Source: a virus
Lineage: Duplodnaviria; Caudoviricetes
Reading direction: 5' to 3' (one strand)
DNA: 40,118 bases
IMG/VR virus record: IMGVR_UViG_3300046779_000390
Coordinates: 1-40,118 of that record
Shown one piece after another: positions 14,484 to 30,643 of the stretch. Position numbers and translations under genes: made by a program. Each line of letters starts with the position of its first letter. The first letter of the stretch is position 1. The notes beneath the pieces are model-generated. The model ran no database searches. It saw only the letters and a list, made by a program, of their open reading frames with translations, and was not told the origin of the DNA.

Positions 14484-16352
14484 CTATCCGTAAGTTTGTG
14501 CCCATTGCTCTGCAAAGGCTTCGTCTAAATTCAGTGAACCACGATTGGACATCTGTGCCCTCGTTGCCCATCGGTTGGTTTGGTACTGTCCCACTCTGGA
14601 TGACTGTTGCATCAACTCACGGATACGAATAATCGCAAACCATAGAGCCATAACGCAGTCGGTAGGGTTCTTGGTGTCAGGCTTCCAGGTAATCAACTCT
14701 TGAACCAAAGTCTTAAGACCTTCAGAGCCTTCGTTGGAAGGCAGTTCGATGATGTTGTTATCTTGGAATCGTCCATCACGTGCATTGCCAAAAAGCATTG
14801 CCATAGATGCCACACCAAAAGATGTGTCCCACTTGTTCTTACCAGTGAAGTGTGAGTTCAACTGGCACCCATACTGGGCTAGAAAGTTTCTTAGGTTCTC
14901 ATCCAGGGCGTAAGCCTTCTGGTGAGCGTTGATTTCAATTCTGACTTCTTGTGGTCGATACTTCTCGACCCAATCTTCAATCAGATTCTGAATCTTGGCT
15001 GGTGTTGGCTCAGTCATATTGACTGCATCAAGAACATAAATCTTGCCATCGGCTCGATTGTATGTACAGATGACAGCACCTGTAGCACCTGCCATAGCAG
15101 GGTCAAGACCCATAACTGTATAGGTTGACTCTAAATGCTTTGGATGTCCAGGCACTCCTGCCTTTAGCGGTCCACGCTTTCGCATTCCGTTGACGGAACC
15201 TTGCACACACAAAGGTGAGAAGATTGAATCTTCTTGGACGTCTTCTTGTTGGTAGACCATAGCCCAGACAGAGGGCGCGACTTCAGAGCGACGCGTAAAG
15301 AGAGAAGGTCCATCCCACTTGGGAAAAAGTCCGTTCTCATCAGGTTCGTCCAATTCGTTTTCTTGCTGGTCTGATTTAGCCCAGAGTGTTTTCCAGTTCT
15401 TGGGGTTCTCATCAAACTCAAGGACTGCAGGCATTGCCGCGTAGGTGAAGGGTGACTTGCCACCGCTCCACTGTCCTGGGTCACGTAGCATCTTGTAGAG
15501 GTCTACTGGTGCCACTCTGGTTCCGACGATAATTAACTTACCGTGTCGACCAAGACGGGTGATAACTTCTTTCTGAAGCCAGTCCATCTGTTTTTCCCAC
15601 TCGTGGGCATTGCTACCCATAACTGCGTCATCGACAATAATCAAGTCAGCACGAGCACCGTAAATCTGGGAACCAATACCGAGGGCTTGGACCGTTGGGT
15701 CCTTCTCGCCTGAATCTCGACCAGTACCTAGGTAAATCATATCTGCTTGCCACTGGGTGGCATCTGCCTTGTATCCACCATTAGGTCCAAAGGCAACCTG
15801 TAATTTGGTGTAGGCAGGGTGTGAAAGTCTTGTCTTAATCGCACCAAGGAACTTACGAGCCATACCCTGAGTCTTAGAGACGATAATGACTCTAGTGTTC
15901 GGGTTGGTCACAATTCGGTAGACCACGTAGTTGGTCGTGATGACCGTAGACTTGGCGTGCTCAGGTGGGACGTTAATCAGAATTCTGTTAAGGGCTGCCT
16001 GCTCGTAGGTCATAGCAGGATGTAGCCACCTAGGTTCCCTACCCTCAATCATATCGAACCAGTTGAGGTGGTGTGGGAAAAGTTTGGTATCTAGGAACTG
16101 CTCACAGAAGTCAGGGAACTCGATGTCCTTAAGTTCCTTGAGGTCAGCCTTGATGCCCTTACCTTCCAGGCGGGCTTTCTCAGAGCGTTCCTTAAAGTCA
16201 GGGTCCTGCATCACCCACTGGCGGAAGGTTGTATCGTTACGGTTGACCGTAGCCATAGCCCCAGTAATGGTGTTACCCTGGGCTAGTTGGATGAGTACCC
16301 GCTCCTGGGCTTCCTTTTTGGAGATGTCCTGCTTTCCAGCCTTACGTCCCAT
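14484..16352 (-). CDS. terL: Terminase large subunit with N-terminal HTH-like extension
   Basis: Walker A-like PPEHAKST, Walker B LIIVDD, coupling motif VGT, nuclease GLDPA and DCVMA. Confidence 0.92.
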   Translation of the reverse strand: MGRKAGKQDISKKEAQERVLIQLAQGNTITGAMATVNRNDTTFRQWVMQDPDFKERSEKARLEGKGIKADLKELKDIEFPDFCEQFLDTKLFPHHLNWFDMIEGREPRWLHPAMTYEQAALNRILINVPPEHAKSTVITTNYVVYRIVTNPNTRVIIVSKTQGMARKFLGAIKTRLSHPAYTKLQVAFGPNGGYKADATQWQADMIYLGTGRDSGEKDPTVQALGIGSQIYGARADLIIVDDAVMGSNAHEWEKQMDWLQKEVITRLGRHGKLIIVGTRVAPVDLYKMLRDPGQWSGGKSPFTYAAMPAVLEFDENPKNWKTLWAKSDQQENELDEPDENGLFPKWDGPSLFTRRSEVAPSVWAMVYQQEDVQEDSIFSPLCVQGSVNGMRKRGPLKAGVPGHPKHLESTYTVMGLDPAMAGATGAVICTYNRADGKIYVLDAVNMTEPTPAKIQNLIEDWVEKYRPQEVRIEINAHQKAYALDENLRNFLAQYGCQLNSHFTGKNKWDTSFGVASMAMLFGNARDGRFQDNNIIELPSNEGSEGLKTLVQELITWKPDTKNPTDCVMALWFAIIRIRELMQQSSRVGQYQTNRWATRAQMSNRGSLNLDEAFAEQWAQTYG

Positions 16353-16510
16353 TTAGTTGTCCCAATCAATAGAATCCCCAACTTGCGTTAGCAGAGGTTG
16401 GGGTACCTAGGAGTATTCTGCAGTCTTCTCTAGGTCTGTACCTGTGCCCCTCTGGGGCATAATATAACACCAATCACGCCTATAAAATAACGGCATAACT
16501 CTGGCGCATT

Positions 16511-16702
16511 CCTACGAAGTAGGTTCGATATTTATATATTATATCGAACGAAGCGTAGCCCTAGCGAAGCGAGTTCGCTAGAACTTTATAAGTTCTTGCT
16601 ATATAAGATAACCCGTTGGAAACGGGTAAACCGAACACTGTATATTAAAATATTTTATAAATAGGGGGCTACCTATATATAAGCCCTGGTCAGAGCCAGG
16701 GC
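16511..16702. repeat. Cluster of six short inverted repeats in AT-rich DNA
   Basis: CCTAC-GAA-GTAGG, GTTCGATAT-N9-ATATCGAAC, CTAGCGAA-N5-TTCGCTAG, AGAACTT-TAT-AAGTTCT, ACCCGTT-GGA-AACGGGT, GCCCTGG-N6-CCAGGGC. Confidence 0.85.
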
Positions 16703-16858
16703 GATATAACAGAAAAATTTAGATTGATAGTACAGTATTGGTATGCACCTGATTAAACAAACCCTGGGTCAAATGTCTAACCTTAAGGTAGACCTATAGA
16801 CTTAGACACTTACCTATATATATGTCTAACTCTTAACCTTACCGTTAGACTAAGGAAG

Positions 16859-16890
16859 TTATCCACAGGATAAGTAATAGTTGTGGATAA
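16859..16890. promoter_or_regulatory. Pair of perfect inverted DnaA boxes
   Basis: TTATCCACA at 16859-16867 and TGTGGATAA at 16882-16890, 14 bp apart. Confidence 0.7.
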
Positions 16891-17023
16891 ACTTATGTTG
16901 TGCGACTATCTCCCCTCCCAAATCACGGGGGCAATATAAGTTACTTAAATCTAAATCGGGTAACTTATCGGGGAAGTTGGCAGACTATATAAATATATAT
17001 GGCATCAACCCGATAACCGATAA

Positions 17024-17056
17024 TGTGATGCATCTCACACGGCTAACCCCTTGACA
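17024..17056 (+). promoter_or_regulatory. CRP/GlxR-type site 1 plus TTGACA
   Basis: TGTGA-tgcatc-TCACA at 17024-17039, TTGACA at 17051-17056; no well-spaced -10 found. Confidence 0.65.
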
Positions 17057-17123
17057 TTCGCCTAATGTTATGGTTGCCCCGATATGTCCGAATTGTATGT
17101 ATCCTTACGCCTAAGGGCTATAA

Positions 17124-17179
17124 TGTGATGTAACTCACACGATTTGCTATTGACAAGCGTGTGATGTATCCCCTAATGT
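17124..17179 (+). promoter_or_regulatory. CRP/GlxR-type site 2 plus SigA-type early promoter
   Basis: TGTGA-tgtaac-TCACA at 17124-17139, TTGACA at 17150-17155, 18-bp spacer, TAATGT at 17174-17179. Confidence 0.75.
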
Positions 17180-17219
17180 TCATCTTGTAAGTACAACTCA
17201 ACAGCGAACAGGAGAAAAA

Positions 17220-17417
17220 ATGTCACAAGACATCCACGCAGAATCTAACCGCCTTATCTCTCGCTATGTAGCGAAGAAAAATGAGTTCACTCTTGAAGTC
17301 ATCGCAGATGCGTTAGAATTCTACTTTCACAGCGAGCAACACCTATACCCCGCTAATGTAATTTGGGAAGTACGCAACAAGGTTATTGATTCGCTCAACA
17401 ATAGTAAAGTGAGTTAA
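17220..17417 (+). CDS. First early gene, hypothetical
   Basis: 65 aa, ACAGGAG ribosome-binding site, follows promoter. Confidence 0.75.
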   Translation: MSQDIHAESNRLISRYVAKKNEFTLEVIADALEFYFHSEQHLYPANVIWEVRNKVIDSLNNSKVS

Positions 17418-17440
17418 ATCACAGCCCCGCATCCTTGACA
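17408..17440 (+). promoter_or_regulatory. CRP/GlxR-type site 3 plus TTGACA
   Basis: AGTGA-gttaaa-TCACA at 17408-17423, TTGACA at 17435-17440; -10 unclear. Confidence 0.55.
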
Positions 17441-17473
17441 GGAGGGCACAGCGAGCGAGACGCTAGTGGGGCA
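17424..17473 (+). ncRNA. 50-nt tRNA-like element (acceptor stem plus T-arm)
   Basis: GCCCCGC/GUGGGGC 7-bp stem, discriminator A, T-arm CAGCG-AGCGAGA-CGCUA, one small internal hairpin; no anticodon arm. Confidence 0.45.
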
Positions 17474-17518
17474 CGGGTGGCAGATAGCCACCGCAAGGCT
17501 AGGCAGGAGGGCTTAGAT

Positions 17519-17818
17519 ATGAGTTACTCAATTAAGAAAGCGATGCGCGAGGAATTCCTCAACGCTATCGAACACGGCGAGACACTAGACTCTATCCGCG
17601 ACAATAGCGGGGAATGGGTAGACGGCTACCTCCCGATTTACAACAACACCATCATAGCAGAATGGCAAGCGATGCCAGGAGATTACGATAACCGCGGGCA
17701 CGCCGAACTAGGGCGCGGCGAGGAGATAGACATCATCAACCTAATGAGTCTAGACCTATACCTTTACTATACCGATATGGTACACGAGACACTAAACGAA
17801 ATGGAGTCGGGAGAATGA
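17519..17818 (+). CDS. Ocr-like (T7 gp0.3-like) acidic DNA-mimic anti-restriction protein
   Basis: 99 aa from ATG 17519 (AGGAGG site); VDGYLPIYNNTII and DIINLMSLDLY resemble Ocr ADNAVPHYYADIF and DVIRILQARIY; acidic; very early position. Confidence 0.6.
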   Translation: MSYSIKKAMREEFLNAIEHGETLDSIRDNSGEWVDGYLPIYNNTIIAEWQAMPGDYDNRGHAELGRGEEIDIINLMSLDLYLYYTDMVHETLNEMESGE

Positions 17819-17922
17819 GCACAACTTTACACCTAGGCGATTGCCTTAACGGGTGCGATATCTGCAAGGATAGGCACCACGAGGGGCAGACTATCTGCCT
17901 AGATTGCGGGGTGGAATTATGA
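17815..17922 (+). CDS. 35-aa Cys/His-rich microprotein (not in ORF track)
   Basis: MSTTLHLGDCLNGCDICKDRHHEGQTICLDCGVEL; ATGA overlaps at both ends. Confidence 0.65.
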   Translation: MSTTLHLGDCLNGCDICKDRHHEGQTICLDCGVEL

Positions 17923-18059
17923 AATGTGCAGACTGTGGGGCAGATGTGGGAAAGTACGAGATGTTTCCAGGGGATAGATGCCTATCCTGCCACGCTATCG
18001 AATTCGATAAGCATCCAATGCCAACGGCGCAGGAGATTCGCCAGATGTGGGGGATGTGA
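17919..18059 (+). CDS. 46-aa zinc-finger microprotein (not in ORF track)
   Basis: MKCADCG...RCLSCH...QMWGM; two CxxC motifs; ATGA coupling. Confidence 0.7.
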   Translation: MKCADCGADVGKYEMFPGDRCLSCHAIEFDKHPMPTAQEIRQMWGM

Positions 18060-18110
18060 CCTATCTCACACAGAAATCTATTGACACGCGTTAGCACATT
18101 AGGCAACACT
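18055..18110 (+). promoter_or_regulatory. CRP/GlxR-type site 4 plus promoter
   Basis: TGTGA-cctatc-TCACA at 18055-18070, TTGACA at 18081-18086, possible -10 AACACT at 18105-18110. Confidence 0.7.
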
Positions 18111-18140
18111 TAAACCAACCAACTACAGGAGGAATACATT

Positions 18141-18662
18141 ATGAAAAAAGCAGACATCGAAATCGGCAAGGATTATGCCTACCAATATCGACGCAACGAC
18201 ACGGACTCAGTGCACGGCATCGCCCGCGCTACAGTCACGGGGTTTGGGTCATCGTGGGGCGGAGCGGTAATGGTTGAAATCTCAATTCATCGTACCCGTT
18301 GGGAATATGAATACGACACAGACTATAAGCGAATCGAAGGCAGTGAGAAGAGAGTCGAGTATACGGAACCCCGCAAGGTGGCACTACTCACTATCGTTGG
18401 AGAGTATGAGCAGGAGAAGGCGCGACGCGAGGCATTTGCTATCCAACGCACGGCAGAGATGAAAGAGTACGAAAGACTACGAGAAATCCGCAAGCAGTGG
18501 AAGGCAGATAACTACGACCCTGCGATGAAAGAATTACGGGCAGAGTTGGCAATTATTACAGGCAAGAGTTACATCAGCGAGGATACAAGACTCAACGAGT
18601 TCGACATCGACCAAATCAAAGCAATAACCGAGGCACTACGAAAGGTAATGGTAAGCGCATAA
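18141..18662 (+). CDS. Hypothetical protein (beta-rich N-terminus, coiled coil)
   Basis: 173 aa, AGGAGG ribosome-binding site. Confidence 0.8.
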   Translation: MKKADIEIGKDYAYQYRRNDTDSVHGIARATVTGFGSSWGGAVMVEISIHRTRWEYEYDTDYKRIEGSEKRVEYTEPRKVALLTIVGEYEQEKARREAFAIQRTAEMKEYERLREIRKQWKADNYDPAMKELRAELAIITGKSYISEDTRLNEFDIDQIKAITEALRKVMVSA

Positions 18663-26764: not shown

Positions 26765-27376
26765 TTATTTATCCTTCTTTGCGAATTGGCAGTGCTCTAT
26801 GAGTCCACAGAAACTGCACGATTGTAGGTTCGGTAGAAATATACCAGCCTTGCGTGCTTTGTCAAAGCCATCAACAAAGTATTCAAGTGTGTCTAGCGTA
26901 TATCTACTTAGGTCAATCATTTCTCCTGTCCCCGATTCACGAGACATCCAGTAGTTTCCTAGATTGACTGGAACTCCTATCATCTGTTCGACTCCTACTT
27001 TGTAGAAGCCTAACTGAAGGTCGGAGGTAGGGCGTGTACGTGAAGTCTTAAGGTCGACAATCACAAGTTGTCCGTTAACCTCAAAGATTCTGTCAATAAA
27101 CATCTTCACTGGCACACCTGCGATGACTGGATTCAACTCCAACTCGATGGCACGTACACCTTGCGGAGTTGTCCAAATTTTCCAGTCAGGGTTGTTCTGT
27201 CTCCACTTGATGTAGTTGTCTACCCAAACGGAGCCATTGATATTCCACCAATTGCCATCCTCTTTGTTAGGATTTTCTTTAGTGGCTCGACCTGCACGAC
27301 GTGCAGTCTCAAGATTTAGTCCTTCAGTTTCCTTGCGCCAGGCTTTCGCCCACAGTTCATTCGTTGTCGTAATCAT
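26765..27376 (-). CDS. Cas4/RecB-like exonuclease, C-terminal part
   Basis: IE...IDRI...IVDLKT, QLGFY and CSFCGLIEHC motifs; ATG 27376 with GGAG upstream. Confidence 0.85.
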   Translation of the reverse strand: MITTTNELWAKAWRKETEGLNLETARRAGRATKENPNKEDGNWWNINGSVWVDNYIKWRQNNPDWKIWTTPQGVRAIELELNPVIAGVPVKMFIDRIFEVNGQLVIVDLKTSRTRPTSDLQLGFYKVGVEQMIGVPVNLGNYWMSRESGTGEMIDLSRYTLDTLEYFVDGFDKARKAGIFLPNLQSCSFCGLIEHCQFAKKDK

Positions 27377-27545
27377 ACAACTCCGTTGCATAGTGGAAAG
27401 CACGTCCTCCTGCTGACCAGATGGATGGTTCCTCTGGAACCTGAAGTAGTCGACCTAGGTAGTACTGATAACCACAGGTCAGATATGTTGTGAACGCTGA
27501 GTAACTGATGTGCTCAGGTAAAGTATAATCGTCTAACTTAATCAT
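27357..27545 (-). CDS. Cas4/RecB-like exonuclease, N-terminal part
   Basis: HISYS...TCGYQYYL...GRAFH; ATG 27545. Confidence 0.8.
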   Translation of the reverse strand: MIKLDDYTLPEHISYSAFTTYLTCGYQYYLGRLLQVPEEPSIWSAGGRAFHYATELYDYDNE

Positions 27546-27687
27546 CGAGGAAGTCCACGAGATAGTCAACCTCTTCACGTAGTTCTCGAACTGTTTCCTC
27601 TAGGTCGTGCAATGCAAAGGTCAGTTCAGATAGTAGCCAAGCGATATCGTCGTGTTCTTCTTCGTGCTTCTTAAATGGATTCCACAT
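27538..27687 (-). CDS. 49-aa acidic coiled-coil protein (not in ORF track)
   Basis: MWNPFKKHEEEHDDIAWLLSELTFALHDLEETVRELREEVDYLVDFLDD; GACAGGAG site. Confidence 0.75.
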   Translation of the reverse strand: MWNPFKKHEEEHDDIAWLLSELTFALHDLEETVRELREEVDYLVDFLDD

Positions 27688-27708
27688 AATTGCTCCTGTC
27701 GTAGTTGT

Positions 27709-27762
27709 TTAGATAGACCCCCTGAGAGGACAGGAGGTGACTCAATCAGGGGACCTATCTAA
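27709..27762 (-). promoter_or_regulatory. Leader hairpin with anti-Shine-Dalgarno loop
   Basis: 17-bp stem plus GAG/CUC closing the loop UCACCUCCUGUC, complementary to GACAGGAG at 27700-27693. Confidence 0.65.
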
Positions 27763-27780
27763 TCCTTCATTCGTCCAAAC

Positions 27781-27860
27781 TATTAATATATAATATATAT
27801 ATTATATAGGCGCCTTAGCGCCTTATATAGTATTTATTATTTATTAATAATTTAATTATA
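27781..27860. repeat. Extremely AT-rich palindromic tract
   Basis: 22-bp perfect palindrome TATATAATATATATATTATATA at 27787-27808 followed by AGGCGC-CTTA-GCGCCT. Confidence 0.8.
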
Positions 27861-27885
27861 CACATACCCTGACCTGACTTGTCAA
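27855..27885 (-). promoter_or_regulatory. Promoter for the replication operon
   Basis: TTGACA (27885-27880)-N19-TATAAT (27860-27855); spacer is long. Confidence 0.6.
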
Positions 27886-27908
27886 GTCTCGACACGCCGT
27901 GCTACACT
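27879..27908 (+). promoter_or_regulatory. Divergent promoter with GACAC box
   Basis: TTGTCA-N18-TACACT with extended -10 TG; GACAC at 27891-27895 in the spacer. Confidence 0.6.
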
Positions 27909-27914
27909 TTTCTG

Positions 27915-28090
27915 ACTGGTGGATGAGCACGACTCATTCCCATTAAGTGTGGCAAGCCGTCGTGGGCTGAGCCACCACCAGAGTTTCTAGCGCCTTCCAC
28001 CAGGGGTGGTCGGTACTTGCTTGGCTAGAAACGACAAAAGGACCCCCTTCCATAGCAGTGATGCTAGGGTTGGGGGTCTTCTTGTCTCTA
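27915..28090 (+). ncRNA. Candidate structured small RNA (kissing-loop three-way junction, long hairpin, terminator)
   Basis: P1 CUGGUG/CACCAG, P2 loop CACGA complementary to P3 loop GUCGUG; GUUUCUAGC/GCUAGAAAC hairpin; begins at the predicted +1. Confidence 0.6.
28033..28086. terminator. Probable bidirectional intrinsic terminator
   Basis: GACCCCC...GGGGGTC stem with U-rich tails on both strands, downstream of the holin gene. Confidence 0.8.
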
Positions 28091-28127
28091 TCGCCCTGCT
28101 AGGGGCGTATATGAGGGTGTTTTAGAA

Positions 28128-28319
28128 CTACTTCTTGCGACCAAACTCTGGTGAGTTGGTGTCCAAAGCCTTGAGGACTGGACCGACGAAGCCTGCTACG
28201 AATGCCATAGCCAACTTCTTAGGGTCGTGCTCTCCTGCCATATACAGTGCTGATACAGCAGTCGCTGCAGCACGGAAGTATGACAGTCCGATTTGCTTTA
28301 GTTTTTCTGTGTCGAACAT
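28128..28319 (-). CDS. Holin-like membrane protein
   Basis: 63 aa, two hydrophobic segments and basic tail; follows the endolysin. Confidence 0.7.
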   Translation of the reverse strand: MFDTEKLKQIGLSYFRAAATAVSALYMAGEHDPKKLAMAFVAGFVGPVLKALDTNSPEFGRKK

Positions 28320-28328
28320 ATGTTCTCC

Positions 28329-28838
28329 TTATGACTTGAAGACGGGCTTACCGAATCCCACGATGTACACAGGTAGTGACTTCTTGAGGGCAGGTCCGTT
28401 CTTTGCTTTGTATGCACGCTTCTTCAGGCAGACTTGCCCTCCGTTGCGCTGGTCACCCTTTTTATCAGGTGCTGTATTGCCTTCGATAGTAATTACAGTT
28501 CCGTCTCCGTTGTCTCTAACCACGATTCCAACGTGGCTAATGCGGTCAATACCATCGTTGGGAAAATCAAAGAAAACAATATCCCCAGGTAGTGGAGTCG
28601 CTTCATCTACTTTCTCCCATTGGTTCTTTTTGATGAAGGCTTGGGCGCCAGCAAGTGTGCCAACCACGTTAGGAATCTTAAGCCCAACTTCGTTCGCGCA
28701 CCACATAACAAACGAACCACACCAAGGTAGGAAGTTTGCTTTAGTGAACGCACCGTACTTAGTCTCATTGTCCTTTGGTCCTTCGATTACCCCGATTTCT
28801 GCACGGGCTACTTTGATAAAGTCATTACGCTGACCCAT
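28329..28838 (-). CDS. Endolysin, CHAP domain
   Basis: PWCGSFV, PGDIVFF, SHVGIV and IEGNT motifs; ATG 28838 preferred. Confidence 0.9.
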   Translation of the reverse strand: MGQRNDFIKVARAEIGVIEGPKDNETKYGAFTKANFLPWCGSFVMWCANEVGLKIPNVVGTLAGAQAFIKKNQWEKVDEATPLPGDIVFFDFPNDGIDRISHVGIVVRDNGDGTVITIEGNTAPDKKGDQRNGGQVCLKKRAYKAKNGPALKKSLPVYIVGFGKPVFKS

Positions 28839-29082: not shown

Positions 29083-29255
29083 TATTCATCGTCCTTTAGG
29101 TTGCGTAGATTAAGCGTGACTGTCCAGATGACTAGACAAATCACGATTGCATAACCAACAACTGTCTTGGCAGAACCTTCAAGGACTACCCAAGCGACGA
29201 ACATTCCAAGGAGTGTCCATAGTTGATTGGCAATATCTGATAGCAGTTTCTTCAT
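29082..29255 (-). CDS. 57-aa two-TM membrane protein (not in ORF track)
   Basis: MKKLLSDIANQLWTLLGMFVAWVVLEGSAKTVVGYAIVICLVIWTVTLNLRNLKDDE; TAATG coupling at both ends. Confidence 0.8.
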   Translation of the reverse strand: MKKLLSDIANQLWTLLGMFVAWVVLEGSAKTVVGYAIVICLVIWTVTLNLRNLKDDE

Positions 29256-30643
29256 TATGGTTTTCTCCTGTACGCAGCGGTTGCGGCAGCGCCTGCTGCT
29301 GCCTGGGTTGCTATGCCACCAGCGATGATGGCTGAAACGACTACATCTTCTGCAGTCTCACGAACTTCAGGTGGCAGGTCTGCACCTACACTGCCGAAGG
29401 CAGCAAGTGCTGCACCTGGGTCAGTAAACATTTCTTGCAGCAATGCTGCTGGGTCTTGCAATAAAGCAACAGCGATTGCTTCTTCTGCTGTAACTACTAC
29501 ACCGTTATCCAACTCAACTGGAGTTGATGGTGGTAGACTTTCTAAATTAACATCACTCACACTTGGAGGTTGCGATGGAGTATCAGGCACTGATGGTTGT
29601 ACGGGCGCTGGAGTTGGCTCTGGCAAAGGCTCAGGATTTACTACAGGCGGTTCCTCTTGGGCAACCTCAGTCGGAGGCTCAGGTGCAACTTCTGGTGCAG
29701 GCTCTGGTGCAGGTTCAGCGACAGCAGGAGGCTCTTCAGCAGGAGCAGGTGGTTCCTCTGCAGGTGCAGGAGGTTCCTCAGGTGGTGCAACAGGTTCGGG
29801 AGCAGGCTCTGGAATGGGCTGCGGAGCAGGTGCTGGGGCAACTGGCGCAGGAGCAGGGGCTGGCTGAGGTTGAGGCTCAGGTTGAGGTGCTGGCTGCGGA
29901 GCAGGTGCGGGAGTTGGTTCAGGTTCCACTGCTGGAGGCGGAGTAGGTACACTTGTACCAGATTCCGTACCACTCGAAGGAGGATTAGATGTTGCAGTCG
30001 TTGTATCTACTACTGTTGCTGTGTCTTGGACTGCTGTTTGTGTCTCAGAAGAAACAGTTTGAGTTTCAGTTGAAGAAGGAGCAGTCACAGTCTCGACACT
30101 GGCAGTCGGAGTTTCAACAGTTGAGGGAGCAGTTTGTGTCTCTACAGAACTCTCAGTCGCAGAAGGACTCGGAGTTGGAGTTGAAGTTTCAGCAGTTGAA
30201 GTCTCAGTGGCAGATGGAGAGGGAGAAGGCTCTGCGCTTGGCTCAGGAGTTGGCGATGGAGAAGGGGTCGGTTCAGGAGAGGGCGAAGGCTCTGGAGTGG
30301 GACTTACAGTAGGAGCAGGCGTTACGCCATTGTAATAACCAACAGCAGGGTCACTAAGATTATCGCTAACATAAGTAGTAAACCCTTGTGCGTATCCACC
30401 TTCACAGAACAACCTTGGGATGTATCCCTTGTCAGCAAAGAAATTGTTGCTGTTGTCCCATCCGATTTGAAATGTTTGTTGAGTACCATCCTGTTTCGCA
30501 CAGACTACATTTGCAGTAACTTGAACTGCTTGTGCATTAGGACTCCAAAAGAATGAAGTACCTAAGACGATAAAGAATACTGCTAACTTACTTCCTGTTA
30601 CCCTTAGAGAGTAAGAGGTAAATCTGGTCAACGCGTTGTTCAA
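29255..30643 (-). CDS. Exported Pro/Thr/Glu-rich protein with C-terminal membrane anchor (start uncertain)
   Basis: Signal-peptide-like segment ending AQA, small two-Cys domain, long PEP/PAP stalk, hydrophobic C-terminus plus RRKP. Confidence 0.75.
   Translation of the reverse strand: MNNALTRFTSYSLRVTGSKLAVFFIVLGTSFFWSPNAQAVQVTANVVCAKQDGTQQTFQIGWDNSNNFFADKGYIPRLFCEGGYAQGFTTYVSDNLSDPAVGYYNGVTPAPTVSPTPEPSPSPEPTPSPSPTPEPSAEPSPSPSATETSTAETSTPTPSPSATESSVETQTAPSTVETPTASVETVTAPSSTETQTVSSETQTAVQDTATVVDTTTATSNPPSSGTESGTSVPTPPPAVEPEPTPAPAPQPAPQPEPQPQPAPAPAPVAPAPAPQPIPEPAPEPVAPPEEPPAPAEEPPAPAEEPPAVAEPAPEPAPEVAPEPPTEVAQEEPPVVNPEPLPEPTPAPVQPSVPDTPSQPPSVSDVNLESLPPSTPVELDNGVVVTAEEAIAVALLQDPAALLQEMFTDPGAALAAFGSVGADLPPEVRETAEDVVVSAIIAGGIATQAAAGAAATAAYRRKP

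Follow-up and report, generated by a model that had tools for sequence, protein, structure and literature searches.

The stretch of DNA analysed here (the window; 40,118 nucleotides, IMG/VR record IMGVR_UViG_3300046779_000390) is a complete virus genome with direct terminal repeats, whose genes include those for a large terminase of 622 aa (phrog_38, E 1e-70), a portal, a major head protein and two WhiB-like proteins. One intergenic region separates the replication block from the lysis block, both on the minus strand. On one side lies a 49-aa ORF with which the replication block begins; on the other the lysis block ends, and there, past the endolysin gene, a hydrophobic 63-aa ORF converges on the region; this ORF matches nothing in PHROGs or Pfam and is a putative holin by its position. 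The left part of the intergenic region matches the cultured Planktophila phage LanE43-AprF5 (PMC10202952) and a sister record at 75.6% over 208 nt. Since sequence is shared with cultured Planktophila phages, the window is assigned to a freshwater actinophage, whose host likely belongs to 'Ca. Nanopelagicales'.

The surroundings hold further features. An AT-rich imperfect palindrome with a GC-rich centre adjoins the RNA locus on the left and is kept in relatives; its central hairpin shows compensatory changes between lineages, and a separate 17-bp hairpin (27709-27762) spans the leader of the 49-aa ORF. The two are flipped as a block in some relatives (L221, L226), and the block (27709-27853) is a possible origin or translational operator. 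The PD-(D/E)XK exonuclease (26765-27542, minus strand) is divided into two overlapping ORFs of 61 and 204 aa, which match the N- and C-terminal parts of PF12705; relatives are split likewise, and the division is therefore a conserved split gene or frameshift and not an error. Positions 16352-18141 form a long, mainly non-coding stretch, also with ORFs starting only with short or unlisted frames, and contain four TGTGA/GTGA-N6-TCACA boxes, which we take to be CRP/GlxR-like, each a short distance 5' of a TTGACA site that belongs to the early block on the plus strand. Beside the lysis genes (29255-30643, minus strand) lies the gene of a 462-aa protein with a long, low-complexity middle rich in Pro, Glu, Ala and Thr.

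For the intergenic region, the original prediction had proposed a single plus-strand RNA of 176 nt, comprising a three-way junction with kissing loops and a second hairpin, and equipped with its own promoter and terminator. All sequences that it named are located where it had put them (Table 1), and its statement that the region contains no sizeable ORF is borne out: none longer than 39 aa lies fully within 27688-28127 on either strand.

Table 1. Features at and around the RNA locus, in window coordinates.
Feature	Position	Strand	Basis and remarks
AT-rich imperfect palindrome, GC-rich centre	27777..27853	.	kept in relatives; adjoins slot on left
Divergent promoter-like site TTGACA-N19-TATAAT, TG-extended	27855..27885	-	read from sequence, its 19-nt spacer lying beyond the range of the promoter scan; for replication genes
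Predicted sigma-A-type promoter	27879..27908	+	sequence match, supported by relatives; +1 predicted at A27915
-35-like TTGTCA	27879-27884	+	18-nt spacer to TACACT
GACACGCC box	27891..27898	+	marks left edge of slot; single exact copy in window
Extended -10 TG-c-TACACT	27900-27908	+	sequence
Three-way-junction RNA module, 68 nt	27915..27982	+	folding against shuffles, alignment of five members
P1	27916-27920/27977-27981	+	consensus fold of homologues
P2, bulged U27938	27921-27927/27933-27940	+	consensus fold of homologues
Loop L2, CACGA	27928-27932	+	sequence
Junction segment, invariant C and AAG	27941-27948	+	alignment
P3	27949-27975	+	loop L3 GUCGUG, 27959-27964
Invariant C27976	27976	+	predicted partner G27947
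Second stem-loop module	27983..28032	+	9-bp closing stem, inner CAGGG-loop hairpin, 3' bulge; z -2.9
Long terminator-like hairpin	28033..28090	.	z -5.4; kept in filled and empty slots
Hydrophobic 63-aa ORF	28128..28319	-	past endolysin, convergent on slot; putative holin by position

The segment 27915-28090 folds at -85.2 kcal/mol (z -6.1, with none of 200 shuffles as good), and the junction module alone gives a z of -3.0. Its hairpin loops L2 and L3 are complementary to each other, and hairpin loops with 5 bp of complementarity arose in 2 of 2000 shuffles of the window core. The three-way junction originally drawn stands; two of its pairs, G27921-C27976 and G27922-U27938, are replaced by G27921-C27940 and G27922-C27939 in the light of homologues. 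In the resulting consensus fold, the two bases after UGGU pair, across the bulged U, with the two bases that follow this U, and the G of the invariant AAG pairs with the single C before P1. Only two of the five members, when folded freely to minimum energy, adopt the consensus junction and leave both loops open, and the covarying fold lies 1.9-4.7 kcal/mol above the free minimum in each of the five; the L2-L3 duplex was scored at -7.2 kcal/mol, and set against this cost the modelled energies favour the predicted kissing of the two loops. An alternative fold, which had been suggested as a switch, exists as sequence, but it lies 11 kcal/mol above the minimum, has a pair probability of 0.0, and cannot form in the four other homologues, which are without the second hairpin.

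These four further distinct homologues all come from freshwater actinophages and bring the junction to five distinct sequences, present as one copy per record (four carrier records and the window). Every member lies just 5' of a terminator that ends convergent lysis genes and faces a holin-like gene. Pairwise, the members share 45-58 of about 68 positions (66-84%), their segments are of fixed length, and 95.9% of cells are paired in the alignment. Nine of the 25 stem pairs have changed on both sides, which none of 500 shuffles reaches, and the covariation score is 0.352 against 0.140 (slid controls 0.005-0.056, with zero to two two-sided pairs), numbers to be read with the caution that for five related sequences a shuffle control overstates significance and invariance may reflect descent. 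Two-sided changes affect P1 and P2 as well as each part of P3; the dinucleotide after P1, together with its partner, reads GG/CC, AG/CU, AA/UU (two members) and AC/GU. Exchanges between G-U and G-C point to the plus strand as the RNA strand. Stem covariation across five distinct members thus upholds the claim of a conserved three-way junction.

The loops behave differently from the stems: CACGA and GUCGUG are identical in all five members and none of the five loop-loop pairs ever varies, so that covariation says nothing for or against their kissing. Loops that are invariant and do not covary would also be expected if an outside sequence fixed them, as in a base-pairing sRNA whose invariant loops or junction seed on a host mRNA or on the RNA of a competing phage. 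We regard such an sRNA as unlikely, given that no complement of at least 9 nt recurs at a common gene in the five carrier records (two of them fragments), and that both invariant loops, being mutually complementary, would be hidden by their own pairing. The lack of a recurring complement in these records equally goes against an antisense RNA of the P1 c4 kind, directed at the phage's own genes.

The members were collected in several rounds. Among 62 close relatives two carry the junction, with identical sequences, and pattern scans added L211, L255 and L377. A first pattern scan, over 58 of 64 parts, gave 119 stretches, of which three were real by eye (L088, L116, L169); another gave 14, three of them real; and a scan of metagenomes with the loops left free gave 83, one of them real (L255), with L239 rejected as a chance match. 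Scanning the complete viral collection for both loops yielded 77 stretches, the five real ones representing the four homologue sequences, and a loops-free scan of 27 of 64 parts yielded 119, two of them real and both already known; all of these 119 were checked by script and 100 also with a covariance model, where the best new score (17 bits, L594) fell to a stretch that lacks the 3' arm of P1 and was rejected. No member with altered loops appeared in the loops-free scans (the scan with 14 stretches, metagenomes, genomes, and 27 of the 64 parts of the last scan); in the genomes, 185,579 species were scanned for the pattern, and none of the four matches folds like the junction. Another junction with complementary loops, AGUUGG/CCAACA, is present in L374; the covariance model gives it no score, and we count it as an analogue.

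Relatedness of the RNA does not follow that of the phages. The window RNA shares 57 of 68 positions with the RNA of a phage whose terminase is 46% identical, and 49 of 68 with the RNA of one whose terminase is 96% identical, which suggests that the junction RNA was probably exchanged horizontally between distant phages. A single insertion can be read from two loci, since L377 corresponds to L379 with the junction module added at the start (predicted +1) of its second promoter.

The second stem-loop is likewise separable. A homologue of it occurs without the junction in four loci (L226, L228, L232, L237; one distinct sequence, with two compensatory changes seen by eye), and the junction occurs without the second hairpin in four of five members; instead of a single 176-nt RNA, the locus therefore contains two independent modules that share a terminator. 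This terminator is present in all relatives, with filled or empty slot alike, and is for this reason part of the locus, where it chiefly ends the minus-strand lysis operon; it cannot be called the RNA's own. It was missed by a simple terminator scan, its plus-strand U-tract is weak, and it is probably bidirectional. The weak U-tract, together with a promoter that aims at the lysis genes, would suit a cis-acting element, an attenuator or antitermination RNA, which controls how much transcription reads through into the convergent genes for holin and endolysin and so adjusts the timing of lysis by antisense. This we consider very unlikely, because the alternative fold has no probability and no conservation, because other modules place a terminator of their own ahead of the shared one, and because in L377 another module intervenes between junction and terminator. 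At the opposite edge lies the GACACGCC box, whose role we infer from sequence: it includes GACAC, given as the WhiA motif in PMC10243135, just upstream of the divergent minus-strand -35, and in relatives it codes D-T-P at the start of a methyltransferase gene.

Between box and terminator, the content of the locus varies. For the window lineage, 80 loci were fetched with the neighbouring exonuclease fragment, of which 18 were too short and 62 could be resolved; 26 of the latter are empty, 32 contain an ORF and four a short insert. The ORF encodes a protein of about 190 aa in 31 cases (one was checked and matches Methyltransf_24, E 1e-19) and an unrelated one of 152 aa in L049. In the methyltransferase loci (L004, 2089-2664, and 30 similar ones), the start codons overlap the box and the stop overlaps the terminator. 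The junction is absent from 60 of the 62 resolved relatives and from cultured phage F5 (LanE43-AprF5, L001), whose slot is empty. This distribution bears on the suggestion that the RNA might be an oligomeric scaffold of the packaging motor. The prohead RNA of phi29 is a three-way junction with complementary loops, and such loops could pair between molecules here as well; the present RNA, however, is half the size, is missing in most close relatives, and belongs to a phage with an ordinary large terminase and portal. Being accessory, and having probably been transferred among distant phages, it is no packaging pRNA; a role of this kind is extremely improbable.

Altogether, the slot of a relative may be empty, be taken up by a methyltransferase gene, or hold an RNA module; about 17 such modules were counted by eye, some of them in tandem. 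A second lineage, in which an HNH gene (PF01844) lies upstream as in L211, is particularly rich: among the 80 loci fetched, one of them cut short, 34 slots are filled and 45 empty. By eye, the filled ones comprise a capped hairpin with GAA facing AGUA and its own terminator (11 loci), two further types of hairpin plus terminator (four and three loci), an H-type pseudoknot (six loci), two longer types (two loci each), the junction (two loci, one being the query's own and one also bearing the capped-hairpin type), the L374 junction, two singletons and two direct-repeat inserts; in three loci an extra module follows a second promoter. Six more module types occur in the window lineage and its neighbours. 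Besides the junction, about 16 small structured inserts sit 3' of the HNH stop codon (L359-L438) or 5' of the terminator (L215-L238, L322-L353), tandem inserts have separate promoters and terminators (L377, L379, L381, L255), and several short modules bring their own plus-strand terminator hairpin. Covariation was computed for the junction only and the folds of the other modules are predictions, although a covarying pseudoknot-like pairing was seen by eye in L221 and L233. Three loci (L392, L406, L387) carry, after the HNH stop codon, short direct repeats of TTGTGCTACA in either orientation, which are probably a DNA-binding site and not RNA.

Comparison of these loci also bears on the proposed promoter. 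A site is present, but its match alone is at chance level (5 sites against 3.7 +/- 2.0 in shuffles), and it is the relatives that lend it support. The motif TGnTAnnnT lies directly upstream of the junction in four of five members; in three of these, P1 opens with a purine located seven bases past the hexamer, and one has a 3-nt leader. In the remaining member (L255) the junction, without the motif directly upstream, lies behind another module that follows a small gene. Within the window lineage, the motif is found near the GACAC box in three of four short-insert loci and in none of 24 examined empty loci, and in the HNH lineage it is found at the gene end or slot edge in 30 of 34 filled loci against 1 of the 45 empty loci. 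The contrast persists in a thinned set of 49 sequences below 90% identity (18 of 21 filled, 1 of 28 empty; P 2e-9) and is spread over the tree. The bases on which the motif depends occupy the third position of Ser and Gly codons and are synonymous, so that the HNH protein is left unchanged. Two of the four filled loci without the motif are plain direct repeats and not RNA folds, and the motif goes with eight or more unrelated modules, its middle bases differing. Promoter and cassette could, instead of being separately selected, travel together by recombination, which could add to the signal. The -35 of the divergent minus-strand site overlaps the plus-strand -35, and the latter, which the original prediction had named, may be incidental. 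A stand-alone structured RNA of the plus strand with its own predicted promoter is thereby supported, and we hold it to be very probably a real non-coding RNA gene.

The opposite view would be that the slot is a tolerant recombination site filled with neutral or selfish insertions or with DNA-level structures. Most relatives do without the RNA, two inserts (L392, L406) are plain direct repeats without promoter motif, and no transcript was seen; 23 sequencing runs were listed, none with more than 0.23 of the words, and positions 27908-28009 were covered in none of the eight examined, which comprised contigs only and therefore give no evidence either way on transcription. Compensatory changes, G-U exchanges and the association of promoter with cassette indicate, by contrast, selection on the RNA, and leave the neutral view with very little probability.

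As originally stated, the RNA belongs to no Rfam family: a covariance-model check (Rfam 15) gave no match at the gathering threshold in the window, and at E up to 10 the seven weak matches within 27680-28140 all lie outside the RNA. A search that included the known ribozymes, at E up to 1-2 over 40 loci from both slot lineages, found nothing credible. Phage intergenic regions often contain ribozymes, and the junction could represent a small self-cleaving ribozyme of a new kind, or a processing element, by which RNAs at a transcript's end are released or trimmed. Its compact fold, the invariant C, AAG and C, a predicted bulged pyrimidine beside a G-C junction pair, and the tandem modules behind stop codons (L255) would fit. 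Yet known families are unmatched in window and loci, and four of five members begin flush with the predicted promoter, leaving little to cleave off; we give the ribozyme a small chance. Mimicry of a tRNA or anticodon was dropped by eye, as there is no T-loop and no U33-like base.

By BLAST, the RNA had only an 18-nt chance match, in two of 50,697 phage records, and the L377 array had no match among phage records; plasmid records gave no match either. Literature searches, whose scope left out most subscription papers, returned no published description of this RNA or of an RNA-cassette slot. An IMG/VR survey built on the same source data and the same comparative logic lists 10,006 unnamed candidate structured RNAs (Fremin et al., PMC10690425); six loop strings were unmatched in three of its six supplement files, and the motif could be among its candidates.

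What the RNA does has to be argued from its setting. It is accessory, bears a promoter, lacks an ORF, is closed by a stem, and has no plus-strand gene 3' of it in any of the five members; its effect must therefore be that of a molecule, exerted in trans or on the RNA itself. Unrelated folds that are interchangeable at one site and alternate with an accessory methyltransferase are the pattern of adaptive cargo. We tentatively favour, at somewhat less than an even chance, a compact trans-acting decoy for a host protein, at work early in infection. The host sigma-A RNA polymerase would start at A27915, flush with P1, and the transcript of about 175 nt would fold into its two modules separately and end at the shared hairpin. 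P1, P2 and P3 would stack with nearly no linker, and pairing of L2 with L3 would lock P2 against P3, creating a rigid surface whose invariant bases might be what a partner reads. That partner may be a host RNA-binding defence or regulatory protein, with different modules answering different host strains, which is the weakest step of the proposal.

Few phage RNA decoys are known. In phage PhiTE, pseudo-ToxI is an accessory structured RNA from a variable locus that recombination can expand or replace, and it works in trans on a protein (PMC3475682), likely the mode of the junction RNA too. Pseudo-ToxI, however, consists of short, nearly identical repeats in tandem that look like a host antitoxin (PMC3475682), whereas the slot modules differ in fold, yielded no host counterpart and match no Rfam family; 27300-28400 contains no tandem near-identical short repeats of the type III antitoxin or pseudo-ToxI kind. 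Racrs, the RNA anti-CRISPRs, are similarly small stand-alone phage RNAs that serve as decoys (PMC10651486), but they copy CRISPR repeats, while the junction RNA is a three-helix fold of 68 nt without Rfam match. The likely hosts are described as lacking CRISPR-Cas (PMC10202952) and for streamlined freshwater oligotrophs fewer defence systems are reported (PMC12143481), both of which weaken an anti-defence role.

In overall shape, another known RNA is comparable. The purine riboswitch aptamer has about 70 nt, a three-way junction, L2-L3 pairing and a long J2/3, all of which the junction RNA resembles in size, topology and loop complementarity, and it shares an invariant C before P1; its own segment lengths are fixed. 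These features would suit a riboswitch-like aptamer without expression platform, acting as a sponge that takes up a metabolite or nucleotide signal. The junction RNA nevertheless has no J1/2 linker, a longer P3, 5-6 predicted Watson-Crick loop pairs, no Rfam riboswitch match and no regulated gene after any of its five members, and we found no precedent for a stoichiometric RNA sponge of a small molecule, so that we judge the sponge quite unlikely and retain the protein-binding decoy as preferred reading.

The junction RNA is a real and new RNA family of a known broad kind, whose function we infer. It adds a structured RNA family with comparative support, and its locus yields a dozen or more further RNA candidates, with phages of empty slot as a built-in control. 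The cultured relative with such an empty slot (LanE43-AprF5; PMC10202952) makes expression, partners and fitness testable in the lineage that dominates freshwater bacteria, whose defence against phages is considered to be mainly a matter of surface diversity, and a natural, predicted kissing-loop junction of 68 nt is tractable for structure, ligand and ribozyme screens. Beyond the single family, we speculate, as a doubtful extension, that the slot represents a non-coding RNA arsenal, in which freshwater actinophages swap at least 15 unrelated RNAs, each an aptamer against a different host factor. Kissing-loop junctions, pseudoknots and capped hairpins would then be its elements, arrays would grow by insertion at a transcription start, and the RNAs would be switched on as the gene upstream acquires synonymous changes. 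If true, the arsenal would be an RNA counterpart of a protein anti-defence hotspot, carried by phages of the most abundant lake bacteria.
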